DNA of 38,523 bases from an uncultured Rhodobiaceae bacterium (GCA_937911445.1 CALDQY010000003.1:1-38523), one strand, 5' to 3'. Positions 1,511 through 38,481 are shown, counted from the first letter of the stretch. Translations and numbers: made by a program. The notes: generated by a model not told the origin, from the sequence alone.

Positions 1511-1516
1511 GGTGGG

Positions 1517-1521
1517 TCACC
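1517..1521 (-). promoter_or_regulatory. Archaeal Shine-Dalgarno GGTGA (representative; similar sites precede starts at 8872, 9116, 18261, 30760)
   Basis: GGTGA or GAGGTG lies about 4-7 nt upstream of the ATG in several minus-strand genes. Confidence 0.6.
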
Positions 1522-1570
1522 AAACCGAGCCCATCGATGGGGCTTCAAAACCCAATCGGTTGAATTGGCT

Positions 1571-3481: not shown

Positions 3482-3531
3482 AGCCTGCGGTGTGCATTGC
3501 CACACTTAATTTCATCCCCTACGACACATGG

Positions 3532-4937: not shown

Positions 4938-4968
4938 GACTCAAGGTTGTCGAGGAGATTCATTGAGG

Positions 4969-6802: not shown

Positions 6803-8155
6803 TCATCGGCGTTGCTTCTTCCGCTTCTCTTCAGCGATGGCCTTGAGTTCTCGAGCGGATTTTCCGCCCTGCCCCTTCTTCTTGCCACCTGCTTGCGAGA
6901 TGTCGACCTTCAATCGTCGACCGTTGAGTTCCTGTCCATTAAGGGCCTTAACGACGTCCTCGCCCTTGTCTTTCTCATCGATGAAGACAAACGCAAATCC
7001 TTTCGGTTTTCCTCCTTTATCGGTGGCAATAGCGATTTCTGTGATGGTGGCCTTGTCGCCAAAGAATGCTGTGATGGCTTTCTCGTCTGCATCGAATGGA
7101 AGGTTGCCGACGTAGAGTTTGAGCCCTTTTGCCGGACCTTTCGAACGCTTCTCCTTATTGTCTGCATCACGAACACCGATTCGGCGTCCATGAAGACGGT
7201 GACCATCAAGTTCATTGATGGCAGCATCCGCATGTGCCTTGTCTGTGTACGTCACAAATCCAAATCCTCTTGAGGCACCAGAATCATCGGTCATGACAAT
7301 GCAATCGGTCATCTCGCCATGCTTACCAAAGAGTTCTCGGAGTTTTTCAGTGTCAACCTCACGAGGCAGGCCACCGACAAAGAGACGACAACCAGGAGCA
7401 GCCTTTCGTCCACGTCCTCCTCCACCTCCTTGACCTTCAAATCGGAAGTAGGTACGTTCACGTCCATCTTCTCGAACGTCAGCAGCGATGTAGGTTGCCC
7501 GGCCGGACGATCCTTTGGCAAAGAGTTGCTCTGCGTCTTTGCCCCAACGCTTTCCAGATAGATTCAGAGTTGAAGCGCCTTGTTCGAGTTCTGCCCAGCC
7601 AGCACCGAAGTTGTCTGCGAGTGCACGGTAGCCTTCGTATGTACAACTTGGACAAGCAACGTTCCAGTCTCCATTGACATGGGCTTGCAGTGTATCACCA
7701 CACGATGGACAAATCGCGTGGAGTACGCCGCAATCGTCGCGCTCACGGAAGTCGAGCCGAACCACAGGTTCAATTTCGGTCACAACCGCTCGTGCAACAT
7801 CTCGTCGACGGACGGCATCAGCAACGGTGTGAAGGAATCGGTCGACAATTCGAGTCACGTGAAAGTGACCTTGGAGTTGATGTGGCAATACGTCGCCCTG
7901 TTTCCCTTCAACAACAAGGATTCGGGCTTCTCCCCCTTTTTCTTGCAGTTTCTCGAATTGGCAAAGAACCGTATCTCCAATTTCGATGTTGACGATGGAT
8001 TTTGATGCATCAACAATAACGTGGCCATCATCGATTCGCACGTATCCTGTCGTTGTTGCAACGATTCGGTTGTCAACTGTCGTCGTTCCTTCGCCGGCTT
8101 GATGTTCGCCAACGGTTCCAATCTCTGTTCCTGGGGTGACGAGGCTCGTCGTCAT
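6803..8155 (-). CDS. csl4: Exosome RNA-binding cap subunit Csl4 fused to two C-terminal RRM domains
   Basis: Csl4 N-domain (LVTPGTEIG..AGEGT), S1 domain (IGDTV..HVTRI..D.V.A.V), Zn ribbon CPSC-x15-CPSC..R.LA. Then RRM1 (LFVGGL / RGFGFVTY) and RRM2 (LYVGNL / KGFAFVFI). Lies downstream of METTL5, a typical archaeal csl4 context. Start placed at ATG 8155. Confidence 0.85.
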   Translation of the reverse strand: MTTSLVTPGTEIGTVGEHQAGEGTTTVDNRIVATTTGYVRIDDGHVIVDASKSIVNIEIGDTVLCQFEKLQEKGGEARILVVEGKQGDVLPHQLQGHFHVTRIVDRFLHTVADAVRRRDVARAVVTEIEPVVRLDFRERDDCGVLHAICPSCGDTLQAHVNGDWNVACPSCTYEGYRALADNFGAGWAELEQGASTLNLSGKRWGKDAEQLFAKGSSGRATYIAADVREDGRERTYFRFEGQGGGGGRGRKAAPGCRLFVGGLPREVDTEKLRELFGKHGEMTDCIVMTDDSGASRGFGFVTYTDKAHADAAINELDGHRLHGRRIGVRDADNKEKRSKGPAKGLKLYVGNLPFDADEKAITAFFGDKATITEIAIATDKGGKPKGFAFVFIDEKDKGEDVVKALNGQELNGRRLKVDISQAGGKKKGQGGKSARELKAIAEEKRKKQRR

Positions 8156-8251
8156 AATTTCAACTCGCTGCACAAGCCACCGACGCAGCGGTAACGTGTG
8201 CTGATTTGATGCGAGCGCTGCTCCCTTTTCAACCCCTCACATGGGTTTGCA

Positions 8252-20233: not shown

Positions 20234-20310
20234 GTTCCAATCCAAAACACACACATGAATGAATGCTACGACAGGACAAGACCCATAGTCGAGCAAATGG
20301 TCGGAGATGT

Positions 20311-21363
20311 ATGGGGCAGTTGTATCTTACAACATTCGGAGCCTCTGAATGGATTATTCTGAGTGTGTGGATTCTCGCAGTTGTGTCTCCCATTGCGTAT
20401 TCTATCCGAAACAAGACGCCGATTGCGCTGGGGATTTCCGTTGGGTTACTGCTGGGTTACATCGTCCAATACGCGTTTGTTGTTATGGCTTCGTACGGTC
20501 TTGAGTTTCGGTTCGTATGGTTTGACTTCTGGCTGATTCCTGAGCGATTGGATTCCGTTGTCTACTACCCAACCCTGTTCACAGCAGGCTTCTTGCATAG
20601 CATGAGTGATGTGACGCACGTGCTTGGTAATGTTTTGGTCATTGCTTTGGTGGGCATTCCTCTTGAACAACGCTTGGGAGCCAAACGCTTCACAGTCGTC
20701 TATGTGACAGGATTGCTCGGAGGTTCAATTGCCTGGGTCTTCTTCAACAGCGGCTCAGGAACACCATCATGGGGCGCTTCAGGAGCTGCATATGGTCTGC
20801 TCGGAGCATACCTCTCTGGCTGGCCTCGTGATGAAATTCCATTCCCTCTCATTTTGATCCGGCCTTGGCCGGTTACCATCATTGCCTTGTTCTATTTTGG
20901 ATTTGAGTTGGTACGAGCGTTCAACACGGTTGGCCTCGGTGGTTATTCCACCGTTGCCCACATGGCGCACATTGGAGGATTTGTCGCTGCTTACGCTTTG
21001 CTTCCATTGGTGGCAAGAGGCGGGCCATACCCATTGGGTATTGTCGATGGAGGGCCGAAAGGATTCGGACATTCAAGAGCTGGATTTGACCAGATCAAAT
21101 CATCCATGGTTGATGTATCTGGCATCGACGACCCATGGACAGAACTTGGACTTGACGTTCCGAAGAATCTACGCGAGCCACTTCGAAAATTGAAGGAAGC
21201 TGGAGATGAAGCGGAAACGCGAATTGCATGGATGGAGCACATTGCCGAGGCTGGCGACTGCCCTGTTTGCCTCGCCCCATTGGGCATGGTCGAACGCCGT
21301 ACAGGGCCCCAACTCCAATGTTCGAAAGAACCGAAGCACTTGTCATGGCCAAAGCATGGATAA
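20311..21363 (+). CDS. Rhomboid family intramembrane serine protease with C-terminal soluble extension
   Basis: FTAGFLH..HVLGN, G.PLEQRLG, GASGA (catalytic Ser), AHMAHIGG (His). C-terminal CPVC...C..H. Confidence 0.9.
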   Translation: MGQLYLTTFGASEWIILSVWILAVVSPIAYSIRNKTPIALGISVGLLLGYIVQYAFVVMASYGLEFRFVWFDFWLIPERLDSVVYYPTLFTAGFLHSMSDVTHVLGNVLVIALVGIPLEQRLGAKRFTVVYVTGLLGGSIAWVFFNSGSGTPSWGASGAAYGLLGAYLSGWPRDEIPFPLILIRPWPVTIIALFYFGFELVRAFNTVGLGGYSTVAHMAHIGGFVAAYALLPLVARGGPYPLGIVDGGPKGFGHSRAGFDQIKSSMVDVSGIDDPWTELGLDVPKNLREPLRKLKEAGDEAETRIAWMEHIAEAGDCPVCLAPLGMVERRTGPQLQCSKEPKHLSWPKHG

Positions 21364-21424
21364 TCAGGGCCAATCAACACACGTTGGAGCGATACCATCA
21401 AAATATATCGATTTGTGGTTGGGT

Positions 21425-24400
21425 ATGGCGATTATGCGCGGATGGTCTCATCACTCAAATCCAAGGCAGGCGTTGTTCTTGGTTTTGCTCATGCTTTTGC
21501 TGCCTATGGCATCGCAAGTTCAGGCGATAGAAACGCTCCCTGAGACACAAGAACCAACACACGCGCCTCCAATTCTGGTCGAAGGCTTGCCACCGCTCAT
21601 GTGTGGTGAGGAGTTGTGTGACCGACCACTTAGAATGTACGACCGTCAAGGGCGAGATGCCGCTTTGGATTATGGATGGTGGCAGGCCTATGGCCCAGAC
21701 CTCGACTGGAATGGTATGGATGACCGTCTTCAGCGTGTTCTAGACGGAATGGATTCTGTATCACCAACAGCGATCATTGGTGCAGACGGGCGAAAGACTG
21801 TCGCAATCGTAGTAGATTATGCATGGCACCCCTCAGAACCAGAAATCCAATCACTCAAATCAACACTTGAAGCACATGGCTGGGTTGGTGTGGAAAATGG
21901 CGCATGGTTTGAAGTGCTCAGGAGCATTGACAGCATCGTTGTTGACAAGGTTCCGGTTTCAGCTCTGATGGACATCTATCACCTTGAAGGGGTTGTCGTC
22001 ATAGAGATGCAAAACGTCATGGCTCCAGTGAATGACGTCGCTGCAAAAGCAGCTTTAGCACGTCCATCTCTGGAGTATGGGAACACTGCAAACGAACTCG
22101 GTTACTATGGAACAGGTGTCGTCATAGCAGTTATGGATACAGGTGTTGATAACGAACACCGCTCTCTCAACGACTTTGATGATGTTGATGATGCGCCAGA
22201 TGCAGATGCTTCGACATACAGCGATCAAAAGTGGGTTGCAGGTTTTGATGCAACATCTCCCAATCCGAATCCAGATGGCTCCACAGATCCCGATGATGGT
22301 AACGGTCACGGAACACACGTTGCAGGTTCGGCACTGGGTACGGGGGATTCATCGCGTGTTCACAGAGGAACAGCACCTGGTGCTGCTTTGGTTGACATCA
22401 AAGTCCTCACAGATGGCGGAGGAACCAATTCACAAGCGAGTCTGGCAGGCATTCAGTGGATGATCAACAACAAAGATACGGACTGGGGAATCAATTCGAC
22501 GTACCGGGGTATCCAAATCGCTTCCATGTCTTATGGTTCGGTTGGCACACCGCTCAACTCTGGTGACCAAGGTGATAACGGGACAAGCGCAGAAGCCTCA
22601 CTCATCAATCAAGCGACCGCTGAAGGCATTATTTGCGTTGTAGCTATCGGTAATGACGGCAGCAACAGAGTGCCTTCTCCTGGAAGTGCTGATGGCGCAA
22701 TAACAGTTGGCTCAGTGAACGACAAGAATACGATTCTAAGAGACGATGATGAGCATTCAGATTTCTCAAATTGGGGTCCACGACTTAGTGATGGAGACGA
22801 TGACGAGTGGGATGAACTCAAGCCGGATATTACCTCTTACGGGCACAACATTGTTTCAGCGACATATGGTACATCGCTCCCAATCCCCGGTGACACAGGA
22901 CTTGCGGACGACCAATACGATTCAAAGTCGGGAACGAGCATGGCAACTCCTATTGCATCAGGAGTCGTTGCTCTGATGCTGGAAGCAGATTCCACCCTTA
23001 CGCCTCAAGAAGTCAAGGATATTCTTCGAAACAGTTCCGAACAAAGAGGAGATCCATACGACGAATCCTTGTCAGAAAGGTGGAATGATAAATACGGATT
23101 TGGAATCATTGATGCAGCATGTGCCGTCAATTCAATTGAGGGAAACCCTTGTGACAACGGGTTTGTGGTAAAAGAATCCAAGAGCGATGTCAATGTTAGT
23201 TATCCTTCAAATGGCACTTGGCTGTTGAGTGATTCATTCACTCGAATTTCTGGAGAAGTCAACATGACCGAAATAGATTATCAGCGCGTTGAGTTGTACA
23301 TCGAACAGCATTTCTACGACAGAGGGCCAAAGATGCTCATGAATTGGACTGAAGCTAACGGGTCGATGGAAAATTGGTTCCTTGATGTTGAGATTCAAGA
23401 TTCATGGGTCGATTACAGCTCAAACGAGAAATTCTTACTCCTCCAAGCCAAAGCCTCCGACGATGATGGTAATGTCTCCAACGTGGCATATCGAAAGTTT
23501 AAGGTGTCTCGTGAAAGTATTTTGATCGATACGCCAATTTCGCGAAACGCCTTATCCGGTACCGTTGAAGTCAAAGGTGAAGTCGAAGGCGTGGAGCATG
23601 AACGAATTGAGTATCGCGTGGATGATGGTGACTGGTTGTTTGGTAGTTCAATCCAGACAAACAACAATCCTGGCGATGATGGAAAATCGAGTTGGTCCTT
23701 CAATTGGGACACAACTGAAATTGATGATGGATTCAGACAACTTTCTGTCCGAATGGTCAACAACTCTGGAAAAGAATCACAAATCGCTCAGAGAAGTTAC
23801 ACCATCGATAACATAGAACCTGCCCCATCGCTTCGATTTACAGGAGATGTCGAGGTACTGAATCGAGGCATGCCTGCAGAAGAAGCGTATCAAGGAAGTT
23901 TACTCGAGCTCAAATTCGACGTCTACAATGCAGGCGATGCTGATGCCTCGGATATTTTCGTTCGATTGGTTGCCCCTGGCGATGAATCTGAAGTGTATCC
24001 TTCGCAAGGGCTCATCCCTGAACTTCCGAAAGGAGAATCGGTTCAGGTTACATTGTTTTGGTCAGCGACTGTCGCAGGATCGCATGATGTTCGAATCGAA
24101 CTTGACCCGAACAACGCACAAGGAGACCCTGATACCTCGGACAACGTGTACGTTTTGAATTATGAAATTCTACAACGACCAGATCAACCTGTACTGCGCT
24201 ATTTGCCCGGATTCGTCACCACCTTGCCCGTTGTGCCACTTGTTGATGAAGAATACAAAATCGACATACGGATTGACAACCTCGGCAAATCGGAAGCATT
24301 CTCACTCGACATCGCACTCGAGTATTGGATTCCTGAGGCTGGCTGGCAATTGATTGACGAAGAGCGTGTTGGATTTGTTCCAGGGGCTACCAGTGAATCG

Positions 24401-26275
24401 GGTTACACCATGGTCGATTTTAGACACCAATCGGAGAAGATAGGCGCAGTACTCTACCGTGCTACGCTTACTGGAGATGGTGTCGAAAGTGATTACAGCC
24501 AAACAACGTTCAGTGTCATTGTCAGTGATGTATCAACCGTTGCAGGTTCAACCACACTTTCCCTCTCGGATGGTGAATACCCGGTTGCATTCGTAGGCGT
24601 AGAATCCTCAACACTCGTGTTTACTTCTGTCGATGGAGAACTTCATGCTCGGTCTTTGAATGACAACCTTTTGCTTCTTACAGACACGCTCGTTGACGAC
24701 AACTGGGAAGGGGAGCTCGATGTTTATCTCAGAGATGACGGATTGGTACATGCTGCATGGACGAGCCGCCAACAAACTGAGCAAGGATATTTTATGACCA
24801 ACATTGCCATGACTTCTTTTTCTCCTGCAGGGCAAATGCTCCCTATTCATACGCATCTTACACCTCTAAAAATCTCCGAGGGCAAATATTGGGGACTTGA
24901 TTTGACCGAAGATGATGGGACCATGGTCTTGTCTGGATACCACCGAAATATCTCAACGGGTGGTTCTTGGAGCGATGTCACTTCCATTTTCAGTTTGCAT
25001 TCTTCCTCACCAGATGTGGGCGAGAGTTGGAGTGAACCAAAGACGCATCTTGCAAACGTAGAGATTCATCCTGATGATGGTGACAAATTGTCAACTGTCC
25101 TTGATGATGAGATTTTGCACATTCTCTTCCAACAGGAACGAGACGATGTTACGGGTGTAGAGAGAAGTGGATTGATGTATACAAAAGGTGACCTTTTGTC
25201 TGCTTCATGGTCGTACCAGTCTTCAATTGGAGATGATGCATCTTCTGCACAAATATCGATCATCAACATCGATAATCAAAAAACCATCTTCGCATCTTGG
25301 ATTGAAGGTTCTGGTCAAAATGCAGAGATTGTAACGATTGCTACACAAGGTGATTGGGATGAGGATGTACATCGTGTTCAGGCACCGGGCGCAACCATTC
25401 TCATATACACTCAACGCAATGATATGGTTGAAGTGATTTACGACGAAATCACAGTCAGAGGAAAAGTTGCTCGCTATGGGATTCTGACAATTGACAACGA
25501 GCAGCCGGTTATTGGCCTTGGTAACATTGTATCAGAGAACGGAGTTCTTGGTTACAGTATGAATAACAAGGATGGAATTCTTTTCCTTGTCTCTGAAACA
25601 GGACGATTCTCAATGCAGAAGTTCCTACTCGATGAAGAACAAGAGGCTGGGGAGTCAAAATCCTTACTTGAGCAATTGTTGGAGCCTCTACCTGGTTCGG
25701 ACGAAACGAAGGTGAGGATATTCCTTGGCCTTGTTTCAGTCCTCTTCATTTTGTTTGTTCTTGTTGTGATTTCTCTCCGATCTGGCAGAAAAGAGGATAA
25801 CATCGCTGATGCGGCCATCGTAGAGGAAGACGAAGTTGCCATCCTCGTTCAGGTTGAAGAAGATGAGCAAGAGGAAGAATTGGTTGCCACAGTCCCAATT
25901 ACTCCTCCTGTACAGGTCGAGATGGAGGAACCCACGCTCGCAGCTGAACTGGAAGCAAAGAGCATTGCTGGCGAAGGGAATGCACGATTGAATCGTCGCA
26001 TGAAGAGGAAACAAGATCGTGAGATAGCAGAGATTGTTTCCAAAGGACTGCCTCCGTTGCCAACTCCAACACCGTTACCGGAACTACCAGCTGCCGAAGC
26101 ATTACCACCTCTACCTGTAGCAGAGCCCGGAACTGGTGCGCTACCGCCATTAGCAGATTTGCCTCCTCTTCGTCGCCAGGCGGTATGCCCCTCATGTGGC
26201 GCAAATTTCCCGGTAACCGATTTGATGCGGGCTCAAGTGATGTGTCCAATCTGTTCAGAAAGATTCAACCTTTGA
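21425..26275 (+). CDS. Large membrane-anchored S8 (subtilisin-like) serine protease with Ig/CARDB-like domains
   Basis: Signal-peptide-like LFLVLLMLLLPMASQVQA. Catalytic VMDTGVD, HGTHVAG, GTSMATP. CARDB-like V.N.G..DA..LDP.N..DN. TM IFLGLVSVLFILFVLVVISL, then Pro-rich tail and CPSC..CPIC. Start 21425 or 21434. Confidence 0.9.
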   Translation: MAIMRGWSHHSNPRQALFLVLLMLLLPMASQVQAIETLPETQEPTHAPPILVEGLPPLMCGEELCDRPLRMYDRQGRDAALDYGWWQAYGPDLDWNGMDDRLQRVLDGMDSVSPTAIIGADGRKTVAIVVDYAWHPSEPEIQSLKSTLEAHGWVGVENGAWFEVLRSIDSIVVDKVPVSALMDIYHLEGVVVIEMQNVMAPVNDVAAKAALARPSLEYGNTANELGYYGTGVVIAVMDTGVDNEHRSLNDFDDVDDAPDADASTYSDQKWVAGFDATSPNPNPDGSTDPDDGNGHGTHVAGSALGTGDSSRVHRGTAPGAALVDIKVLTDGGGTNSQASLAGIQWMINNKDTDWGINSTYRGIQIASMSYGSVGTPLNSGDQGDNGTSAEASLINQATAEGIICVVAIGNDGSNRVPSPGSADGAITVGSVNDKNTILRDDDEHSDFSNWGPRLSDGDDDEWDELKPDITSYGHNIVSATYGTSLPIPGDTGLADDQYDSKSGTSMATPIASGVVALMLEADSTLTPQEVKDILRNSSEQRGDPYDESLSERWNDKYGFGIIDAACAVNSIEGNPCDNGFVVKESKSDVNVSYPSNGTWLLSDSFTRISGEVNMTEIDYQRVELYIEQHFYDRGPKMLMNWTEANGSMENWFLDVEIQDSWVDYSSNEKFLLLQAKASDDDGNVSNVAYRKFKVSRESILIDTPISRNALSGTVEVKGEVEGVEHERIEYRVDDGDWLFGSSIQTNNNPGDDGKSSWSFNWDTTEIDDGFRQLSVRMVNNSGKESQIAQRSYTIDNIEPAPSLRFTGDVEVLNRGMPAEEAYQGSLLELKFDVYNAGDADASDIFVRLVAPGDESEVYPSQGLIPELPKGESVQVTLFWSATVAGSHDVRIELDPNNAQGDPDTSDNVYVLNYEILQRPDQPVLRYLPGFVTTLPVVPLVDEEYKIDIRIDNLGKSEAFSLDIALEYWIPEAGWQLIDEERVGFVPGATSESGYTMVDFRHQSEKIGAVLYRATLTGDGVESDYSQTTFSVIVSDVSTVAGSTTLSLSDGEYPVAFVGVESSTLVFTSVDGELHARSLNDNLLLLTDTLVDDNWEGELDVYLRDDGLVHAAWTSRQQTEQGYFMTNIAMTSFSPAGQMLPIHTHLTPLKISEGKYWGLDLTEDDGTMVLSGYHRNISTGGSWSDVTSIFSLHSSSPDVGESWSEPKTHLANVEIHPDDGDKLSTVLDDEILHILFQQERDDVTGVERSGLMYTKGDLLSASWSYQSSIGDDASSAQISIINIDNQKTIFASWIEGSGQNAEIVTIATQGDWDEDVHRVQAPGATILIYTQRNDMVEVIYDEITVRGKVARYGILTIDNEQPVIGLGNIVSENGVLGYSMNNKDGILFLVSETGRFSMQKFLLDEEQEAGESKSLLEQLLEPLPGSDETKVRIFLGLVSVLFILFVLVVISLRSGRKEDNIADAAIVEEDEVAILVQVEEDEQEEELVATVPITPPVQVEMEEPTLAAELEAKSIAGEGNARLNRRMKRKQDREIAEIVSKGLPPLPTPTPLPELPAAEALPPLPVAEPGTGALPPLADLPPLRRQAVCPSCGANFPVTDLMRAQVMCPICSERFNL

Positions 26276-28919: not shown

Positions 28920-29504
28920 ATGCGCATCCTCTTGGCTTCTGCATCTGAACGACGAGGCACCATTCTTCGCCAGCGCTTTGCAAACGTCGAACAAGTCGCG
29001 CTCAAGGGCGTGGATGAATCTGTCTCCCACCAGATTCTCTCCAATCAAGTGAAGGAAGTTGCCTCACGCAAAGCAGAGGCTGTCGTACTCAACGATGAGT
29101 TCGATGTCGTGGTCGTTTCAGATACCCTAGTCGAGGATCCTGATGACGAACATGTCGCACTTGGAAAACCAGTCTCGAGGGAACAAGCTGTTGCTATGCT
29201 TCTCCGATTGCGTGGCCGCCGTCACCGTGTGTGGTCCGCAACGATGGTGCATGCTATGGACAAATGGCATTCAAGCGTTGAATACGCTGTTGTTGAAATC
29301 GAGGACTTTACGGATGATGCATTGGTCGAACTCATCGAATCAGACTCTTGGGTTGGTAAAGCTGGTGGCTATGACTTGGCTGGTATGATGGGAAAATACG
29401 CTCAATTGATTGAAGGCACAGAGCCGACAGTGTTGGGATTTACTCAGTCTTCTCTTGACTTGCTGGACGACGTTCAATCGATGTTCTCCATGAGTCGATC
29501 GTAA
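28920..29504 (+). CDS. maf: Maf family nucleoside triphosphate pyrophosphatase
   Basis: ILLASASERR, VDES, KA, SDTLV, LGKP, L.GR.H.V.S, GKAGGY. Confidence 0.88.
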   Translation: MRILLASASERRGTILRQRFANVEQVALKGVDESVSHQILSNQVKEVASRKAEAVVLNDEFDVVVVSDTLVEDPDDEHVALGKPVSREQAVAMLLRLRGRRHRVWSATMVHAMDKWHSSVEYAVVEIEDFTDDALVELIESDSWVGKAGGYDLAGMMGKYAQLIEGTEPTVLGFTQSSLDLLDDVQSMFSMSRS

Positions 29505-30760
29505 AACATCGGCATTCGGTGCCAGTTGTCCGATGGGAATACAGTATGTCGAATGAACAAAATCCCGAGCAAGAAGGATGCAACACTTTGTGTCCCAATC
29601 CAAATGTACACCGGCAAGTATTCTCCATCCAAAAGCACGGCTCCATCATAGAGAGACCATGTCATAAGGACGCCGCAAGCAAGGAACATCAACACCAGGT
29701 GCCAATGCGTTATCCGTGTTGATGGAGAATAATGCAAGTGATCTTCGTGAAGGAAAATAGCAAACCCGCAGACGACGAAGAAACATGAATAGGCAATCAA
29801 TAACCAATGTGCAGGCTGAATGTTTGCTATGCCTTCATGTCCTGTCCAAATAGGTGCAATTGAAACGAGTGAGAGCAGGGGCAACAGGAAGTACCCTATG
29901 AACACAAATCGAGAATGCGGTTTTGCAAATTTCCCGATGGAGAATCGTAAAACCTTCAACGGGTTCATCATGAAAAATACGTTCAAGAGAAGAACTGCGA
30001 AACCGATATCGATTAAATCCTCTGATATCGAATTCCTCGCTCGCAGAAAACTCGCCACAACGTAACCAATTCCTAAGAGGATGAGGATGAGGAACCGAAC
30101 TGGTAGAGTTTTCGGGTTTGTTGTATTCCAACCTAGCCTGCGATTGAAATGTGAGAGTATGACTGTCGACATCATCATCATGCAAAAGATCCCTACAATG
30201 AAAGCAACCCCAACTTGTATCATGCCATCGATTCCACGCATAAACCATGATGCAACGATAAACAACGAGCAGAACACGAGAACCAATCCGGGCGAATATG
30301 AGAAAATACCAACCTCTCCTGAGTTGCTCTTCTGTTTGACAATGTCAATCGATGATGGCGTGAGCGTGAGTAAAGCGAGGCACATTAAAACGATACCAAT
30401 TCCAGAGAATTCGATGAACACGTCCCAATTACCAATGTAGATGCCAATATGAATGAACAATTGCCCAAGACCGTTGAGTTGCAAAAAGTGACGCATTGTT
30501 GTCCGTTCAAAGGACGGGACTTTGTACACCAGCGGCAACGTATCAAACGCAATACCAGCAAGGATGGCCATGACAGGTCCTAATGCGAAAAGCGTAATCA
30601 AAACAAAGTTCATGATTTCAAGACGCTCAGTGTTCTCGAACAACTCGTAAGGAGAAAAAAATGTTAACCACGCCAGAAGGAATGTTAAGGCGATGAAGAA
30701 CAACATCGATGATGTAAACAGTTCAAGATAAGAACCTGCGAATTGCTGACGCCTGTCCAT
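29474..30760 (-). CDS. Polytopic membrane protein (about 12 TM), function unknown
   Basis: 428 aa of mostly hydrophobic segments, AGGTGA SD, starts 9 nt after the sepF stop. Confidence 0.7.
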   Translation of the reverse strand: MDRRQQFAGSYLELFTSSMLFFIALTFLLAWLTFFSPYELFENTERLEIMNFVLITLFALGPVMAILAGIAFDTLPLVYKVPSFERTTMRHFLQLNGLGQLFIHIGIYIGNWDVFIEFSGIGIVLMCLALLTLTPSSIDIVKQKSNSGEVGIFSYSPGLVLVFCSLFIVASWFMRGIDGMIQVGVAFIVGIFCMMMMSTVILSHFNRRLGWNTTNPKTLPVRFLILILLGIGYVVASFLRARNSISEDLIDIGFAVLLLNVFFMMNPLKVLRFSIGKFAKPHSRFVFIGYFLLPLLSLVSIAPIWTGHEGIANIQPAHWLLIAYSCFFVVCGFAIFLHEDHLHYSPSTRITHWHLVLMFLACGVLMTWSLYDGAVLLDGEYLPVYIWIGTQSVASFLLGILFIRHTVFPSDNWHRMPMFYDRLMENID

Positions 30761-30769
30761 CGTTTCACC

Positions 30770-31321
30770 TCAAGATACGCGCAGCAGACGTGTAATTCCA
30801 AGCTCGTGCTTTTCAATATCAACAACGACATCTGCTCCGGGAATCATCAACAACTTGTCTTCCGAATCCAGAGCAAAGACGCCAACACCTACTTGTTCAC
30901 ACATAACTCGTAACTCTCGTCGACAGGCCTGTTGATGCGATTCCATGTGGACCAATGTTCGTAGATCAACGATCACAGTATCCCCTTGAAGCACTCGTTG
31001 AGCGATGTCTCGCGTGTGGATACGATGCTTTTCATCTGGCTTAACATACCGAAGCGCTCGTGTTGGTCGAGTCATAACCCGTCCTCCATGGTGTGAGAGA
31101 TCGTGGAATGGTTCTCCGTCTGGTGTTACTGGTCCATTCCATTCGAAAGAGATGTTTTCGTCGATTTGAGATGTAGGCGTCTCCTCGACAATTTGGGTTT
31201 CTACTGCAACAGGTTCATTGGTCAATTGCCTGTTTTGCGTGGAAGCAGGTGCTTCTGCAACTCGAGCCGCACCACCCGCATCTGGGTCCGGGAGTCCAAA
31301 GAACTGCCATAGATTTCCCAT
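30770..31321 (-). CDS. sepF: Cell division protein SepF (archaeal type)
   Basis: N-terminal amphipathic MGNLWQFFG, disordered linker, core IAQRVLQGDTVIVDLRTL..RELRVMCEQVGVGVFAL..LLMIP..VVV. Confidence 0.75.
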   Translation of the reverse strand: MGNLWQFFGLPDPDAGGAARVAEAPASTQNRQLTNEPVAVETQIVEETPTSQIDENISFEWNGPVTPDGEPFHDLSHHGGRVMTRPTRALRYVKPDEKHRIHTRDIAQRVLQGDTVIVDLRTLVHMESHQQACRRELRVMCEQVGVGVFALDSEDKLLMIPGADVVVDIEKHELGITRLLRVS

Positions 31322-31326
31322 CGTTA

Positions 31327-34300
31327 TCACAAATCCAAATCATCCAGTAGGTCGGAGAGATTCGTGTCCTGATTCGATGGTGGAGTCATTGAAGGTGTCG
31401 GTTGATAGGTAGGTGCAGGTGCTTGATTTGCTGCCAGATATTGCTCACCATAGTACGCCCATTGTTCCATGGTCCAACCAGCCGGCAGGCCAGTGGCTGG
31501 GAGTGGAGGGCCTTGATTCACGACTGGCTGTTCAACAAACGGTTCTGGTTGAACAGGCGCTTGTGGTGCTGGCTGCTCGTATGTGGGCAATTCCGAAGGC
31601 GCATAACTTGGTAAGGGCGTTGTATCCCATGCTTTGTTCGATGGAGTCTCGACCAAATCTGGCGGTGAACGGCGAGTGATGAGCAGGAACGATGCCAACA
31701 TGATCACCAAACCAACGAGTCCTAGAATGACGATCGACATGGTTTTAGAGACACCCAATGTATCGCTGAACTCTTCGATGAATCCTTCAGGGGGCGGTTC
31801 TGCAACATCGATGGTAAGCGTAAATGTGTCCGTCGAAAGATCGTCATCGGTTACAGTGAGGTTGATCTTCCACGTGCCAACCGGTAAATCGGTTATCGAT
31901 ACTACAGGCCCAGTTTCACCAAGGTCATTCTCGCCTCTCCACTCAAATGTCCAAACGTAGAGCATGTTCAGCAGATCTGAATCTGAGTCCGTTGTCCCAT
32001 CGGATGAGAGGTTGAGCGTATCGCCCTTCACGAGGTTGTCAAGTGATCCGTTGGCGAACGAAATCTCTGCGCCCGGCAGGACGTTCTGAACTTTGACAAC
32101 AGCCGAAATCGATGCCATGGCACCATCGTCGTCCTTCACCCATGCCGTAACGGTTCGGAACTGAGGGTTGCTGGTCTCCCATGTGTACTCAAAATGAGTC
32201 CCACTCACATCGCAGTCATTGTTCAAGGTGCCATCGAGGTCCGCATCACGTGTTCCGTCGATATCCCAACAGACTTCCAGTGAATCCTTGTCTGAAGCCG
32301 TATCATCAACAGCGACGTCAAAGACCACTTCGTCGTCTTCATCAACCGTAAGGCCTTTGTTGACAGCGTTGAGGAAATTCGCTTCTGCTGTCATGGTTGG
32401 CGGTACGTTGACAATTGTGACCTTTGCGAGCGATGTGGAAGAGGTCGCTCCGTCGTCATCAACAGCACGAACTGAGATGATGTGTTCTCCAGACGTTGGC
32501 CACGAGGTTGAAACATCGGAGGCGGAACCATCAGTGGATACGGTGAAATTATCGAGAACATCACTTAGGTTCCAGTCGATGATGAGTCCATCACGGTCGT
32601 TGAGTGTATCATCGCCTTGGGCACGAAGAATGACGGTCTGATCCTCTTGGAGTACCCAGGTTCCATTCGCATCGAATGGTGTGTTTACGCCTGCAATCCA
32701 CACGCCAATTTCGCCGATGGTTGGGGCTACATTCAGAACTTCAATCGATGAAAGCACTTCGGTTTCTTCGCCATCATCGTCGGTTGCGATGGCACGGATT
32801 GGCATCGTTCCCTCCTCAAGTGGCGAAAACGTACACGTCGGTTGCGTTAACCCTTCAAGACAGTTCAAATCTGGCCAAGAAATACTGACCTGCTGGCCCG
32901 ATGGAGATACTGTATCAATATCGCCGCTATCACTGGCATCGATGGTGATGGAGGATTCGACAGCAATTTCCGGTGGGTGGCTGAGGTTGATGTACGGTGC
33001 TCGATTCAGGATGGTGACATTGCTGATCAAAACAGTTGAGTCAAGTTCATTGTCGGTTACAATGGTTCGCAATTCCCAGTCACCGTCGTCAGACCAGTTC
33101 CAACTGATAGCACAATCTGGCGTTGTAATGACATCGACAAGACCTGGACGTGATTCAATTTCAAATCGGCACTCGACGTCTCCACCATCAGGGTCAAAGG
33201 AAGAACGGGCGTCAATGAAGACGTCCTCGAACGTGTAATTCCCAGTGTCGATAGCAATGGATGCGTTCGGTGCACGGCCGATGAAGACGTCAACAGTAGC
33301 TTGGTTGTTGCTTCGATTGGCGTCTCCGGTGATGAGCTCATCCGGATCAACGGTGAAGGTCAATGTCTGGTTGCCGATGGTGGAATCTTCAGGAACAATC
33401 CAGTCGATTACAATGCGTTGCTCACTGTACGCCTCGATGGATGGAACAGCCTGTCGGCTCGAATCGCCATCGGGCACAACAATTTCCATTTCTGTTGAAG
33501 GCGATGGCAAAACACCTCTGTTTTGGGCTGGTAGAGAGAAGGAGAGTTCGTCACCGGGCAAGGCGTTGTATCCGATCGATTTGGACAGGGTCGCAACCTC
33601 ACCATCGCGAGTTCGAGTAACGATGATTGAATCTTCTTGAGCAACCAAATCGATACCTACAACAGACAAATCGATGACAACCGTGGCAACGCCAATGATT
33701 TCCTGAACTGGATCCCAGACTATCACGCCGTTGCTGCTAAAATCATCGCTAGCGATGGTGTCATCGACGACGTTTGAAACATTGATTGTCTCTTCAATCT
33801 GTCCACTGCTGTTGGTAGTTGGATTAATCAGCGTTCCCGCCATTTCGTAACGCAACTGGAGGTTTTTGTTGACCTCTGGTATGCCGTTTGGAGCAACCGA
33901 GTAGGTTGCATAAATCTTTGATTCTGAGTCTGGTAATGTAGCAATAAATTGAGTCTCAACCTCAATGTCGACGTTCCGATCGCCCGGGTTTTTTCTTTTG
34001 TCAACGCCAAACGAGTCAACGGGTTCGTAGTCTTTCAAGAGCCAATCAATGGTGAAACCAGCAGCGTTTGAGATTCGTATCCAAGAGTTGAATCGAACAG
34101 CGGGACAGTACCAATTAAACCCAGCACTGACGCCTGTGGCGTTCCATTCGTTGACTTTGTACGAATCATCGCATCCTTCGTACTTGATGTTCTGTCCATC
34201 TTCCGTTGGAATTCCATCCTTGGTGACCTGCCAAGATGTATTTTCGGCTCCTTGAGTATCAAACGAGGTCGGGTCGAAGTAATCAGATGAACCACTTACA

Positions 34301-34911
34301 CTCGTGCCTGACATGAAGGGCATGTACCATTGGTCACCCGTCCGCATTGGGAAATCGTATTTTTCTTTTGGCGGGTCGTAATAGGTATCGAATGAGATTG
34401 TGGCGAGGTTCTGGGATAGGAAGCCAAGATTGAATGGTGCAAAGCTGACGTCTAATTCAAATTCCGAATTGATAACTGCGAGATCTCGTACTCGTACGAT
34501 GTCCTCGCCTGAATAATCGATGTCGAGCCTTCCACTGACCCCTTCAAGTGTTGCGCCACTGTTTCCTGATGAGAATTCCCCTTCGATGAGCATCTTGTAT
34601 GCAAGCGTCTGAATCCCGTCAACATTGATGAAAAAGATGTCATCAATTTCGTAAGCAGTGTCCCCGGTGAGTGTATTGAGGCTCGCAGATACGTTGGCTT
34701 GTGCCAGCAGTTGAGAGACATCGAATTGCGTTTCATAGGTCCACTTGTCACCGATGCGCCAGCTTGGGACATCGGTCGAGCTTGTTGTACCTGAGGATTG
34801 GTCAACAGATGGTAGCAGGTCAAGTGTCGTTGTGTCGTTGTTGACAAAGTGCACAGTGGATGAACCTGCCAAAAGGAACAAAACTAGGAATGTCAATACG
34901 CGGTTCGCCAT
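31327..34911 (-). CDS. Large secreted membrane-anchored surface protein (CARDB + PKD-like repeats), paralog B
   Basis: Signal peptide, PSWRIGDKWTY domain, CARDB (VDPDE..DANRSNN), repeated V.DDDG / N..P PKD-like units, TM IVILGLVGLVIMLASFLLI, Pro-rich tail with GLPAGWTMEQW. Confidence 0.8.
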   Translation of the reverse strand: MANRVLTFLVLFLLAGSSTVHFVNNDTTTLDLLPSVDQSSGTTSSTDVPSWRIGDKWTYETQFDVSQLLAQANVSASLNTLTGDTAYEIDDIFFINVDGIQTLAYKMLIEGEFSSGNSGATLEGVSGRLDIDYSGEDIVRVRDLAVINSEFELDVSFAPFNLGFLSQNLATISFDTYYDPPKEKYDFPMRTGDQWYMPFMSGTSVSGSSDYFDPTSFDTQGAENTSWQVTKDGIPTEDGQNIKYEGCDDSYKVNEWNATGVSAGFNWYCPAVRFNSWIRISNAAGFTIDWLLKDYEPVDSFGVDKRKNPGDRNVDIEVETQFIATLPDSESKIYATYSVAPNGIPEVNKNLQLRYEMAGTLINPTTNSSGQIEETINVSNVVDDTIASDDFSSNGVIVWDPVQEIIGVATVVIDLSVVGIDLVAQEDSIIVTRTRDGEVATLSKSIGYNALPGDELSFSLPAQNRGVLPSPSTEMEIVVPDGDSSRQAVPSIEAYSEQRIVIDWIVPEDSTIGNQTLTFTVDPDELITGDANRSNNQATVDVFIGRAPNASIAIDTGNYTFEDVFIDARSSFDPDGGDVECRFEIESRPGLVDVITTPDCAISWNWSDDGDWELRTIVTDNELDSTVLISNVTILNRAPYINLSHPPEIAVESSITIDASDSGDIDTVSPSGQQVSISWPDLNCLEGLTQPTCTFSPLEEGTMPIRAIATDDDGEETEVLSSIEVLNVAPTIGEIGVWIAGVNTPFDANGTWVLQEDQTVILRAQGDDTLNDRDGLIIDWNLSDVLDNFTVSTDGSASDVSTSWPTSGEHIISVRAVDDDGATSSTSLAKVTIVNVPPTMTAEANFLNAVNKGLTVDEDDEVVFDVAVDDTASDKDSLEVCWDIDGTRDADLDGTLNNDCDVSGTHFEYTWETSNPQFRTVTAWVKDDDGAMASISAVVKVQNVLPGAEISFANGSLDNLVKGDTLNLSSDGTTDSDSDLLNMLYVWTFEWRGENDLGETGPVVSITDLPVGTWKINLTVTDDDLSTDTFTLTIDVAEPPPEGFIEEFSDTLGVSKTMSIVILGLVGLVIMLASFLLITRRSPPDLVETPSNKAWDTTPLPSYAPSELPTYEQPAPQAPVQPEPFVEQPVVNQGPPLPATGLPAGWTMEQWAYYGEQYLAANQAPAPTYQPTPSMTPPSNQDTNLSDLLDDLDL

Positions 34912-34935
34912 GTGTGAATGTCTGCTTTCTCGTAC

Positions 34936-37900
34936 TTAGGAATTGTCAACCTGCGAGTCGAGCCATTGTTGACCATAGTGCTCCCACTGCTCCATCGTCC
35001 ACCCCTCGGGCAATCCGCCTTCTGGAAGAGGGGGTCCAGTTGTAGGCGCAGGGGCTACGTTGACTGAATCAAAGGCTCGTTCAATAGGTGGATCTTGTGG
35101 TCGATTGCGACGTGCTGAGATTTCATGCGGCATCAGGCCGACTTCCTCATCGCTGAAAATTGCGTTCTGCTGCTGGTCAAGCCGATCCATGGCTCGTTGT
35201 TGTCTGCCTGAACGTCGACGTCGGGTCATCATGCCGAGGACAAGGAGCATGAACGCAAGCAATGAAAGTTGAGCAACTGGATTGGCTTCATCGCCGACGA
35301 GGGCAGCGCCTAATTCTTCAACGATTGTACGTTCTGGGGCACCGATCTCAACATTGATGACTCGAGTTCCGGGTCGTTCCGGATTCTCATCCCAGGCAAT
35401 GACTCGGATTGTGTAAGATCCTTCACGGGTAAACACATGTTCGATTTGTTTACCGATTTTGTCAGCATCGTTGTCTTTGACTCCATCACCATTGCTGTCA
35501 ACAGACGTGTCGAGATCCCAAACGACCGTGATTTGGTCGAGATCATTGATGGAGTCAATCGTTCCAGTTGCATCCAAAAGACATGCTTCGAGGGCGTTGC
35601 AGACAATGTCTTTGGTTCGGACGATTGGTGGGATGTTGAGGACTTCAATGGAGAGAATCTCACTGACACGCACGCCGTCGTCGTCGGTTACGTGATAGAT
35701 GACCGTGTGCGTCCCGCTTGTGTTCCAATGCCAGACCAGCTCATCGCCAATCACATCGCAGTCATCATCAGCACCGCCGATATCGTTGGAATCGAGACCG
35801 GGATCGACATCCCAGCAACGAATCAACGTGTCGTAATCGGAGGGAGTATCGGTAGCATTGCCGACCAATCGAACTTCTTCTCCTTCTGCGAGGGGAAGAA
35901 CTTGCTCCAGTGGCTGAACAACTGGTGGGACGTTCGCAACACTTACCCATCGCTCGTATGTACCGCTGCTGGCCCCTTCAGAGTCGCTTACCTCGAGGCG
36001 CATGCGGTGGAGCCCTGATGTCTCCCACATCATCTCAAATTCAGAAACTCGCCCATCGAAGGTTTTGATGAGATTTGGCTGCGCATCATCTGGCCACCAT
36101 CGGTGGGTTAAGCCATCTAAATCATCGACTGAATCGAGGGCTTGGCCACGGAGATTGACCATTTGGTCCTCCTGAACATGCCAAGTTTGCTGGACATCAA
36201 GCGGTAGGGGACCACTCTCATTGGTCATGGTGACGGACAGCCCGTGGGGGTTGATGTTGGTGAATCGGATATCGATGCTGGCCATGGTCATGGCACTATC
36301 GTCGTCGACGCCAACGGCTTGGAATGTATGCCATCCTTCAGTTGGTGCAGTCGTTGTACAAACTCGCGTGTAGTACCCTTCTTCGCAGATTGCATTTAGC
36401 CAGTACACGTCCACAATCCCTGGAAACGGATCTTCAGAATCTGTATCGTTTGCATAAGCATAGAGTGTAACGGGATGTTCAACTTTGACCTCGTTACGAG
36501 CGCTGATGACCTCGATGTTTGGCGCCCGATTCAAAATGACAACATCAAGAATGCCTTCGACTTGGTCTTGTTCTTCGTCGGTAATGGTCACCTCGACAGG
36601 GTATTCACCATCGTTTGTCCATGTCCAGTTCAGCATGCAATCCATGGATTCAACTCGCGTCCACGCAGCCGAGCGAGTGCCATCGTACCAAGGAACATTA
36701 AACAGACAGGATACATTACCACCGTCTTCATCAAAACTACCTGAGGCATTGATCACCGTCTCGACGTTTGTGTAGACTTCGATGGGCTCGAGGACTGCTG
36801 TCGGTAGACGTCCAATGAACAATTCAATTTCACCGAGGTCGTTATCGGCATCCGCATCTGCAGTATTGACTTGCAGAGGATCGGATTCCCATCGAATTGG
36901 CAAGGTTCCAATCGCTGCATCAGCGGGTACTGTCCAAGTGAAATTGACCTTGTGAGATTCGTATGTGGCGAGCGGTGGTAATCCGAGGTCAAAGATGGAA
37001 CCATCTGGATGATAAATGCGCAAATCTGTTGCTGTGGATGTTGTGATGCCTTTGTTGACAACAGCGACTTCGATGGTTAAGTCATCACCGGGAAGGACAT
37101 TGTAACCGGACAGTGAACTGACAGTGCTTACAACGCCGCTCCTGTTTCGAATGATGACTGCTCGTTCTTCGTCTGCAATCAAGTCGAGGCCAACAAGATA
37201 CTCATCGAGCGTAATGGTGGCTGCACCAACGTAACTTCCAGATTTCGCCATAATGCCATGGCTGGACCAGTCCGTGTTCGTTGCAGAATAGTCAATGCTG
37301 CTACCTGAATCAATCGTTGTGCTTGCTGAACCGTTTGAAGCGGTGTAGACAGTGGTTGAGGCACCATCGTATGCGACCTCAACTCCAACGCCATCAATGG
37401 TCCCATAACACGATGGGCTGAGGTGAACCCATACTTCGAGCGGTGAATCAAGTGCTGTGAGAGAACGCTCAGGAGCGACATCGACACATGTCGGCCGAGT
37501 GCCTGGATCACTGTTGCTTTCAACGCCTGTGGCTCCAACAGGCATGTACTGTTTCAAGCGGAAATCAATGGTCAGGCCAACGTCTTCCTCGGCATGTCGC
37601 CATGCGTAATTGTTGACCGCTGGGCAGTACCATCTGTAACCCGTCGAGACACCATCTGAGTTCCACGATGTCAGCTCATACGATGCATCGCATCCACTGT
37701 AAGCGATTCCAGCTCCGATGGCGTTTCGAGGTTGTCCTACATCGGTGACTTCCCATGTTGTTGTGTTGGTATCTGTTTCTGGTGGCGGGAACGGTGTGAT
37801 GTAATCGCTTTGACCAGACCATTGAGAGGATGCAGTTGTCAGTGAAGTCCACCGTTCTCCATAGCGGAGTGGGAAATCGTATACCTCCGTAGCAGGGCTG

Positions 37901-38436
37901 TATTCGTTCGTAATCGTGATATCACCAAGGATTTGCGTGAGCGAACCGATTCCGTATGGAATGAACTTGATGTACAGATCGAGATCGTTCTTCACAGTCG
38001 CAAAATCGCTCACTCGTAGGTATTCGGTTTGTGTGAATTGGATTTCAGCGTTTCCTGTGAACCCTTCAAGTTCAACACCACTTTTGTCGAAATCTGCAGA
38101 CATCCGCAATTTGTAAACCCATTCGGTTCCATTGTCGAATTGAAGTTCGAGAATATCTACGACTTCAGCAGTCGCATCGCCTCGAATCTCACCCACGTTC
38201 GCTGAAACGCCCGTATCTGTAATGAGGATGGAAGGATCAAACGTCCCTGAGTAAATCCACTTGTCACCGACTCTCCATGATGGTAGGTCGGTCACACCAG
38301 GGTCGGACCCACTTCGCTGGACGACTTGCTCGTTGGAAGGCAGAAGGTTGTGTTCAACCAATGGGATTTGACTGAACCCAATCATGCATGCGAGAACGAG
38401 CAGGGTCAAGACACGTGACTTGAACACTCCGCCCAT
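34936..38436 (-). CDS. Large secreted membrane-anchored surface protein (CARDB + PKD-like repeats), paralog A
   Basis: Same architecture as 31327-34911: PSWRVGDKWIY, GCDASY..WYCPAV, GYNVLPGD, PKD-like repeats, TM followed by RRRR, GLPEGWTMEQW. Start placed at ATG 38436. Confidence 0.8.
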   Translation of the reverse strand: MGGVFKSRVLTLLVLACMIGFSQIPLVEHNLLPSNEQVVQRSGSDPGVTDLPSWRVGDKWIYSGTFDPSILITDTGVSANVGEIRGDATAEVVDILELQFDNGTEWVYKLRMSADFDKSGVELEGFTGNAEIQFTQTEYLRVSDFATVKNDLDLYIKFIPYGIGSLTQILGDITITNEYSPATEVYDFPLRYGERWTSLTTASSQWSGQSDYITPFPPPETDTNTTTWEVTDVGQPRNAIGAGIAYSGCDASYELTSWNSDGVSTGYRWYCPAVNNYAWRHAEEDVGLTIDFRLKQYMPVGATGVESNSDPGTRPTCVDVAPERSLTALDSPLEVWVHLSPSCYGTIDGVGVEVAYDGASTTVYTASNGSASTTIDSGSSIDYSATNTDWSSHGIMAKSGSYVGAATITLDEYLVGLDLIADEERAVIIRNRSGVVSTVSSLSGYNVLPGDDLTIEVAVVNKGITTSTATDLRIYHPDGSIFDLGLPPLATYESHKVNFTWTVPADAAIGTLPIRWESDPLQVNTADADADNDLGEIELFIGRLPTAVLEPIEVYTNVETVINASGSFDEDGGNVSCLFNVPWYDGTRSAAWTRVESMDCMLNWTWTNDGEYPVEVTITDEEQDQVEGILDVVILNRAPNIEVISARNEVKVEHPVTLYAYANDTDSEDPFPGIVDVYWLNAICEEGYYTRVCTTTAPTEGWHTFQAVGVDDDSAMTMASIDIRFTNINPHGLSVTMTNESGPLPLDVQQTWHVQEDQMVNLRGQALDSVDDLDGLTHRWWPDDAQPNLIKTFDGRVSEFEMMWETSGLHRMRLEVSDSEGASSGTYERWVSVANVPPVVQPLEQVLPLAEGEEVRLVGNATDTPSDYDTLIRCWDVDPGLDSNDIGGADDDCDVIGDELVWHWNTSGTHTVIYHVTDDDGVRVSEILSIEVLNIPPIVRTKDIVCNALEACLLDATGTIDSINDLDQITVVWDLDTSVDSNGDGVKDNDADKIGKQIEHVFTREGSYTIRVIAWDENPERPGTRVINVEIGAPERTIVEELGAALVGDEANPVAQLSLLAFMLLVLGMMTRRRRSGRQQRAMDRLDQQQNAIFSDEEVGLMPHEISARRNRPQDPPIERAFDSVNVAPAPTTGPPLPEGGLPEGWTMEQWEHYGQQWLDSQVDNS

Positions 38437-38481
38437 GCATATGCTTAGATGTTCTTGCACATCAAAGGTGCGACGATGGCC

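Follow-up and report, generated by a model that had tools for sequence, protein, structure and literature searches.

Surface proteins with unrelated ectodomains share, in the archaeal order Poseidoniales (Marine Group II), a short peptide module near their cytoplasmic end. This element, hereafter the W module, was present in every genome of the order that was searched. It is kept by purifying selection on the peptide, is combined with different ectodomains, and at one locus its carrier gene directly precedes a gene for SepF. We give about an even chance to the reading that the W module is a docking handle recognised by a partner protein found throughout the order. The module is described here from two tandem genes, paralogs A and B, on a 38,523-nucleotide (nt) stretch of DNA, referred to as the window (GCA_937911445.1, CALDQY010000003.1:1-38523), which was deposited as an uncultured Rhodobiaceae bacterium. 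Exact public copies of both proteins (1166 amino acids (aa) for A and 1194 aa for B), named 'CARDB domain-containing protein' or 'hypothetical protein', come from metagenome-assembled genomes (MAGs) labelled Candidatus Poseidoniaceae or Thermoplasmatota; the host order is therefore Poseidoniales.

Two tandem surface-protein genes end in the same peptide

Paralog A (34936..38460, minus strand) is an open reading frame (ORF) of 1174 aa starting from GTG; the public gene call begins at M9 (position 38436), which gives 1166 aa. It encodes a type-I surface protein composed of a signal peptide, a CARDB/PKD ectodomain (PKD_4, PKD and CARDB matches in a Pfam scan), a transmembrane (TM) helix and a cytoplasmic tail that closes with the W module. 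The TM helix, placed by a Kyte-Doolittle scan at about residues 1061-1078 (35227..35280, minus strand), is followed by TRRRRSGRQQR. The W module, GPPLPEGGLPEGWTMEQWEHYGQQWL (34960..35037, minus strand; profile E 6e-23), lies 7 residues before the stop. Paralog B (31327..34911, minus strand; ORF of 1194 aa) is likewise a type-I surface protein with a CARDB/PKD ectodomain and a TM helix at about residues 1058-1078 (31678..31740, minus strand; same scan), followed by TRR. Its tail consists of the W module, GPPLPATGLPAGWTMEQWAYYGEQYL (31435..31512, minus strand; profile E 4e-20), and a 35-aa extension that terminates in an acidic/hydrophobic end peptide, LSDLLDDLDL-COOH (31330..31359, minus strand).

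A whole-length alignment of the two proteins gave 32% identity over 1187 columns. Within the motif, 19 of the 26 residues were identical, versus 12 common positions out of 63 in a global alignment of the linkers between TM helix and motif, which agrees with an earlier reading of this DNA (the first-pass annotation) that the motif is better kept than its flanks. Both peptides are also encoded where that annotation placed them, but on the minus strand, the plus-strand frames giving unrelated peptides. In both proteins the motif comes after a hydrophobic TM segment and an Arg-rich cluster.

Nine copies in the host genome

We searched a six-frame translation of the host genome (2.04 Mb, 318 contigs, 87.5% complete). 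A regular expression for the motif core matched nine ORFs, with no match in a reversed-protein control. A 44-position profile built from the nine copies recovered them at E values from 5e-23 to 3e-18 and nothing weaker up to E = 1. Eight of the nine carriers were full-length, the ninth being cut by a contig end, and all eight exhibited the same layout: an N-terminal hydrophobic signal, a large ectodomain, a single C-proximal TM helix followed by Arg/Lys, a low-complexity linker and the motif. The distance from motif to stop was 8-11 residues in these proteins, except in paralog B (35 residues).

The ectodomains were diverse. In BLASTP comparisons among the eight full-length carriers, ectodomain similarity was detected in two pairs only (the window pair and one partial pair), so that the carriers span at least six unrelated ectodomains. 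Pfam assigned PKD/CARDB to the window pair, NEW3/FixG_C/CARDB to one protein, a WD40-like propeller to another, NHL and thrombospondin-3 (TSP3) repeats to a further one, and no family to the remaining three; in a wider Pfam scan, 15 of 28 carriers were without any family. The nine module copies were 73% identical in protein. Where residues were identical, only 37% of pairwise comparisons also showed the same third codon position, and five different codons were used for the invariant Leu of the module. Synonymous sites are thus scrambled, which shows that the copies are ancient and that purifying selection acts on the peptide, with neither recent duplication nor homogenisation by gene conversion.

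These data bear on the explanation that the shared motif is functionless, left over passively when one gene was duplicated in tandem. Paralogs A and B are indeed a tandem pair, and the first-pass annotation had named a motif confined to this pair as the outcome that would undo its proposal. Nine copies on at least six unrelated ectodomains, saturated synonymous sites and the presence of the module in every genome of the order searched refute this explanation.

Other features were observed in or near carriers. A second conserved tail motif, ..ANSM[FY]GG..IFQQ.., was found in a carrier of the type of the host's C156 protein and in two carriers of small-genome relatives, where it lies behind the TM helix and ahead of the W module. 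On contig C50, a 1758-aa protein with EF-hand matches (2-5275, plus strand) is encoded directly upstream of a 1804-aa W-module carrier, and a 145-aa ORF without known family begins 14 nt after that carrier.

Distribution of the module

Genomes drawn from the relatives of the host, from its class and from its phylum were searched with the profile; the three draws overlap, and the overall tallies include the host genome. All 41 genomes of the relatives draw (3 families, 11 genera) contained a match. In the class draw, the module was matched in 256 of 256 genomes of the order (140/140 in family f1, 1/1 in f2 and 114/114 in f3) and in none of the genomes of two families of the sister order (0/43 in f4 and 0/2 in f5), which is presumably Marine Group III. 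The phylum draw gave the same pattern, with 102 matches in 102 genomes of the order (62/62 in f1, 39/39 in f3) and 0/10 in the sister-order family f4. In the remaining families of this draw, 4 of 289 genomes matched, all with E values of 0.004-0.01 per genome, which is about chance level. The per-genome count that the first-pass annotation had proposed thus found the module in every Poseidoniales genome searched and in no sister-order genome (0/45 and 0/10). Its view of the motif as lineage-specific is supported by these searches, as is its statement that such tails recur on many membrane proteins of Marine Group II, since many otherwise unrelated membrane-anchored surface proteins carry the module.

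Copy number differed between families: genomes of the host's family had 5-12 copies, those of the second large family 1-8 and most often 3. Single-copy genomes were found in one genus (3 genomes with one match each), and the carrier kept in them is the orthologue of the host's C156 protein.

When one genome per GTDB species was scanned with the pattern, at least 612 stretches matched; 558 of them were confirmed, and the best 80 were listed. The titles of 79 of these 80 named Candidatus Poseidoniaceae, Poseidoniales, Poseidonia, Thalassarchaeaceae, Thalassarchaeum or generic Euryarchaeota, Methanobacteriota or Thermoplasmatota MAGs. The remaining record, titled Verrucomicrobiales, was rejected as an exception: its genome has nine modules, including the tandem pair, and is a mislabelled Poseidoniales bin. 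A profile search of 1.84 billion representative proteins returned 636 at E ≤ 1e-3 and 365 at E ≤ 1e-10; this library carries no taxonomy, so the restriction to the order holds for the sampled genomes and not for all life. Among viral contigs, 148 pattern hits were obtained, and none was confirmed as a module.

Anatomy, topology and predicted structure

The anatomy of the module was described from the best 150 representatives, a set made up, by the way it was selected, of the strongest matches. All 150 contained the core of the consensus, (G)PP[LIV]PxxGLPxGW[TS]M[ED]QWx[HYW]YGx[QED][YW]L. Eight positions (P-7, G-4, P-2, G0, W1, Q5, W6 and G10) were each found in 150 of 150 proteins, and polar (T, E, Q) as well as aromatic positions are invariant. 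The core was followed by at most 15 residues in 126 of the 150 representatives, by 16-50 in 17 and by more than 50 in 7; several of these longest ends resemble frameshifted or run-on gene calls.

A TM helix preceded the module in each of the 53 representatives with more than 150 aa upstream, the regularity that the first-pass annotation had suggested checking. The distance between the end of the TM helix and GW ranged from 17 to 142 residues, with a median of 65, over a disordered, low-complexity tether rich in Pro, Ala, Glu, Ser and Gln. Positive charge was concentrated behind the helix: Lys and Arg in the 15 aa beside it averaged 0.57 before and 2.86 after, and were more numerous after than before in 61 of 70 representatives, with 7 ties. 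Together with the signal sequences and the Ig-like ectodomains, this basic cluster places the module in the cytoplasm, as first proposed, and not outside the cell.

A different arrangement was observed in P0138, a recurrent 775-aa ORF of public metagenomes (4 cluster members, 8 contigs), in which the W module lies close to the N-terminus, behind a SAP domain; an acidic linker, the TM helix and a large C-terminal domain come after it. The topology is mirrored, with the module once more inside, which suggests that a free C-terminus is not required.

To describe its structure, we used an AlphaFold2 model of a 60-aa tail (93 aligned tails), in which an extended Pro-rich arm is predicted to lead into a helix at residues 42-58, over TMEQWEHYGQQWLDSQV. 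Confidence for the module was pLDDT (per-residue confidence) 84-90, with a pTM (global confidence) of 0.42. This model agrees with the initial impression that the part after the LPxGW start looks helical. Conserved residues, including W, Q, W, Y, G and L, occupy about two-thirds of the helix circumference. Foldseek of the tail model against the PDB gave no match at E ≤ 10, and VIA-align against 48,161 chains none with Z ≥ 2; these null results are weak, the model being small and its confidence moderate. A search for look-alikes in the ESM Atlas gave no usable match. The pancreatic polypeptide fold and Trp-cage mini-folds were considered and set aside, as neither fold search returned a solved match, with the same reservation about the small model.

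A Trp/Tyr-rich helix of this kind might act as an interfacial membrane anchor, folding back as an amphipathic helix on the cytoplasmic leaflet and pinning the tail or sensing curvature or lipid composition with no need of a protein partner. Trp and Tyr favour membrane interfaces, a helix is predicted by AlphaFold2, a hand-drawn helical wheel puts W1, Q5, Y9, Y13 and W6 on one face, and the WW/GYF searches and neighbour genes described below yielded no partner. However, such helices usually keep their character rather than their identity, whereas eight positions of the module are constant in all 150 proteins, including G, Q and the Pro arm; polar T, E and Q are fixed; and a tether with a median of 65 residues would be unnecessary for reaching the membrane. 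We consider a membrane anchor unlikely, if by no means negligible. The invariant polar and aromatic positions would be more in keeping with an interface to protein than to lipid.

Another possibility is self-association, in which the tails of different carriers would bind one another as homo- or hetero-oligomers and form patches or a lattice from inside. Small dimerising peptides, pancreatic polypeptide among them, have a similar make-up of aromatic helix and polyproline arm, and the same module is found on 7-12 carriers per genome in the host's family. Against this stand the three single-copy genomes of one genus, which imply that heterotypic clustering is not a universal role, and the lack of structural matches to oligomeric mini-folds in the Foldseek and VIA-align searches. 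This explanation appears improbable to us.

Comparison with known families and systems

Pfam and NCBIfam searches with whole proteins and isolated tails detected only ectodomain families (PKD, CARDB) and noise. Full-text literature searches with the motif letters or with tail and surface features of Poseidoniales found no description, subscription-only papers and bioRxiv supplements lying outside the search. The W module is uncatalogued in the family libraries, solved folds and literature searched.

The first-pass annotation had noted that the LPxGW start recalls WW domains, and this start does resemble the first strand of a WW domain. The rest of the comparison fails: Pfam WW (PF00397) had no match at E ≤ 1 in the host genome, neither among the modules nor in any reader protein, and a WW domain is a three-stranded antiparallel beta-sheet with Trp residues about 20-22 apart, whereas the module is modelled as a single helix without strands and its invariant Trp residues are 5 apart. 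The module is therefore not a WW domain. PPLP is a class II WW ligand motif.

An analogy with sortase and exosortase tags had also been drawn. It holds in that LPXTG/sortase, PEP-CTERM/exosortase, PGF-CTERM/archaeosortase and MYXO-CTERM/myxosortase likewise involve a short, lineage-specific, near-C-terminal signature on unrelated surface proteins, and the W module has many carriers in one lineage (1-12 matches per genome). It does not hold for the layout. In these tags, the signature lies outside and is followed by a TM helix and a short basic end, and it is cut by a dedicated membrane enzyme; in W-module carriers, the order is TM helix, basic cluster, disordered tether and signature in the cytoplasm. 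The tripartite sorting-signal layout was accordingly rejected for the module, the signature coming 17-142 residues (median 65) after the TM helix and basic cluster. In the host genome, 87.5% complete, the best match to Pfam Exosortase_EpsH fell short of the cut-off with 12.8 bits, no search having been made for other sortase families.

The same comparison bears on whether the module is a processing, sorting or turnover signal read by an enzyme, for example a degron for a membrane-bound AAA+ protease such as LonB, or a signal read during insertion. At most 15 residues follow the core in 126 of the 150 representatives, a LonB gene follows one carrier in the host genome, and a rhomboid protease gene lies within the window. 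Moreover, it is a familiar arrangement that C-terminal tags of one lineage are read by an enzyme dedicated to them (PMC1569441, PMC11980579). On the other side, the position of the module 17-142 residues inside the TM helix and basic cluster is unlike known tags, the exosortase/archaeosortase family is below cut-off in the host genome, the LonB neighbourhood is limited to one carrier in one genome, and the module is N-terminal in P0138. We regard an enzyme-read signal as distinctly improbable.

Another parallel is offered by eukaryotes, in which integrin NPxY tails and apicomplexan TRAP/MIC2 tails, with a subterminal Trp, couple type-I adhesins to intracellular machinery. These tails also present a conserved short motif near the cytoplasmic end of single-pass adhesins, but they have no sequence relation to the archaeal module, and the comparison is an analogy only.

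A second tail peptide and the adjacent SepF gene

The gene downstream of paralog B (30770..31330, minus strand) is an ORF of 186 aa from GTG; the public call, from an ATG at 31321, is 183 aa. The stop of paralog B and this ATG are separated by 5 nt. Public records name the gene 'hypothetical', and Pfam SepF (PF04472) searched against the host genome gave this protein as its sole hit, at 12.8 bits (E 0.26), below the 27-bit cut-off; hmmscan of the protein did not list SepF. A profile of 49 orthologues searched against the PDB placed the archaeal SepF-like structure 3zie first (E 0.041). The core, at about residues 90-180, was modelled by AlphaFold2 with a pLDDT of about 95, and in a Foldseek search of the model, ranks 1-11 were all SepF from archaea and bacteria (probability 1.00; TM-score 0.68-0.80, normalised to target). 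As judged from this predicted fold, the gene encodes a diverged SepF. The protein has an N-terminal MGNLWQFFGL segment; MGNLWQFFGLPDP is conserved, with G12 and L13 invariant and P14 and P16 nearly so; AlphaFold2 predicts a short helix at residues 7-10, a candidate membrane-targeting segment. A homologue was found in 60 of 61 genomes of the order. In the sister order, SepF scored above the Pfam cut-off in 5 of 5 genomes, and none of the 5 matched the Poseidoniales SepF profile. A full-text literature search combining SepF and Poseidoniales returned nothing related among the matches listed.

The neighbourhood is strictly kept in the host's family. In 28 of 28 loci, and in one more, a W-module carrier lies directly upstream of SepF, with a gap of -3 to 16 nt from the aligned start, and these carriers have an extension of 39-65 residues that ends in LLDDLD[LF] or a close variant. 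The acidic end is conserved in all SepF-adjacent orthologues of this family, D58, D59 and D61 being nearly invariant or invariant. In paralog B, LSDLLDDLDL is preceded by a 25-aa linker rich in Pro, Thr and Gln. In the other two families (21 loci: L047, L048, L052 and L054-L071), the product of the gene upstream of SepF was always a type-I protein, about 1100-1250 aa long, whose tail is acidic and typically ends in DDEDIEALFED, DDLDLDF or ALDFDL, or in SSEEE in some genera. The W module was present in 6 of these 21 proteins and absent from 15; the W module and the acidic end can therefore occur apart. A TM anchor also closes the product of the gene before SepF in the sister order, where the tail behind it is short and lacks the module. 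Among the SepF-adjacent proteins without W module, those of the second large family (L057-L062, L064, L065, L069, L070) exhibited a conserved juxtamembrane motif, S[MIV]DDAFD[DN]P[EQD][YF]DPF, and many of these tails ended in EDIEALF[ED][ED].

The acidic end of paralog B recalls the LDDF part of the C-terminal peptide of archaeal FtsZ. According to passages of PMC8178401, the M. smithii FtsZ peptide bound in the SepF groove is NEDQLDDFIDGIF, whose N-terminal part, LDDFI, binds in a mode common with bacteria. As in the complexes of M. smithii (7AL2) and C. glutamicum (6SAT/6SCP), LLDDLDL is a short acidic/hydrophobic stretch at the end of a flexible, disordered linker; unlike the FtsZ peptide, it sits on a surface protein, and the W module has no counterpart in FtsZ. 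Two features, the strict adjacency of the genes and this likeness to FtsZ tails, make it probable that the acidic end of paralog B docks on the adjacent SepF. When the SepF core (residues 60-186, two copies) was co-folded with the tail of paralog B (62 residues), the score was 0.00 in two runs, made without controls, which speaks neither for nor against binding. FtsZ itself also differs between the two orders: FtsZ1 ends in RYGI[DE]FVQ in the sister order versus [HTS][IV]EFVN after basic residues in Poseidoniales, and this apparent change of its C-terminus parallels the divergence of SepF in the latter. FtsZ2 ends in QRFD or HRFD.

Metatranscriptome contigs from four runs of one study covered parts of SepF and of the tail region, and a 216-nt contig bridged the junction between paralog B and SepF. 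These contigs are no proof of transcription or of a single transcript, and the uncovered parts carry no meaning.

The W module as a proposed docking handle

The docking-handle reading rests on a tethered, near-invariant peptide in which a proline arm is joined to a helix whose conservation covers most of the circumference and includes polar residues. The flexible tether of 17-142 residues would present the module below the membrane, where the extended proline-rich arm (PPLPxxGLPxG), running into the 17-residue helix, would form with it a joint recognition peptide. One conserved cytoplasmic or membrane-peripheral partner would recognise this peptide on many unrelated type-I surface proteins and tie the carriers to a common intracellular structure, with a role in the placement, clustering or mechanical coupling of the surface coat. 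In paralog B, a second, separable module, LLDDLDL, would dock on the SepF encoded downstream. We infer from the same features that the reader of the W module is a protein. The docking, sorting or oligomerisation tag that the first-pass annotation had proposed is a putative role.

Several observations weigh against this reading. No partner protein emerged from the searches for reader domains or from neighbour genes in the host genome: Pfam WW was not matched at E ≤ 1, the two hits of GYF lay below threshold, and no common neighbour gene was observed beside the other six carriers, which adjoin genes for LonB, thermosome, DsrE and unknowns. Judged by its model, the module could equally be an amphipathic helix on the membrane, and the tail model has no tertiary fold that matches anything, with a pTM of only 0.42. 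Genomes outside the phylum were covered only through the best 80 loci of the pattern scan. The likeness of LLDDLDL to the C-terminal peptide of FtsZ was established by eye only, and the organisms are uncultured.

Other genes in the window

The gene that follows SepF encodes a 428-aa polytopic membrane protein without Pfam family (29474-30760, minus strand). It was rejected as a conserved member of the operon, since only 16 of 49 loci, all in part of one family, have it downstream of SepF. Further along the window, a rhomboid intramembrane protease (20263-21363, plus strand) is encoded directly upstream of a subtilase (21206-26275, plus strand), whose start it overlaps. Rhomboids cut single-pass TM proteins, and it is conceivable that tailed surface proteins are among their substrates. 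The subtilase, a type-I protein of 1689 aa, contains S8, Big_7 and CARDB domains; behind the TM helix, its tail runs through an acidic region and several proline repeats of PPLP-like type to a zinc ribbon (CxxC...CxxC) at the C-terminus. This cytoplasmic tail cap is distinct from the W module. Finally, a 456-aa protein (6803-8173, minus strand) combines an Rrp4-type N-terminal region with two RRM_1 domains (E 8e-38), which we take to be perhaps an unusual combination in one archaeal protein.

Significance for Marine Group II

Marine Group II archaea rank among the most abundant archaea of the plankton, and no member has been cultured; to our knowledge, little has been reported on the construction of their envelope or on its communication with the inside of the cell. 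A near-invariant peptide at the inner end of nearly all large surface proteins of Poseidoniales provides a concrete biochemical handle on this problem. The lineage-wide surface-protein tags known to us all lie outside the membrane and are read by sortase-like enzymes. A cytoplasmic counterpart would represent a different way of organising a prokaryotic surface, with a logic closer to that of eukaryotic adhesin tails.

A bolder proposal, speculative and in our judgement unlikely, is that Poseidoniales link their surface coat to the FtsZ/SepF division machinery from inside. All major surface proteins would then be collected on a scaffold beneath the membrane, with the W module as their common handle, and the SepF-adjacent carrier would fill the SepF groove with its FtsZ-tail-like acidic peptide. 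If true, this would explain why SepF has moved beyond recognition by Pfam and why FtsZ1 has lost the acidic-GID peptide that is kept in the sister order, and it would constitute an archaeal trans-membrane link from surface coat to divisome. That one carrier is consistently paired with a strongly diverged SepF offers a testable entry into cell division of Marine Group II.

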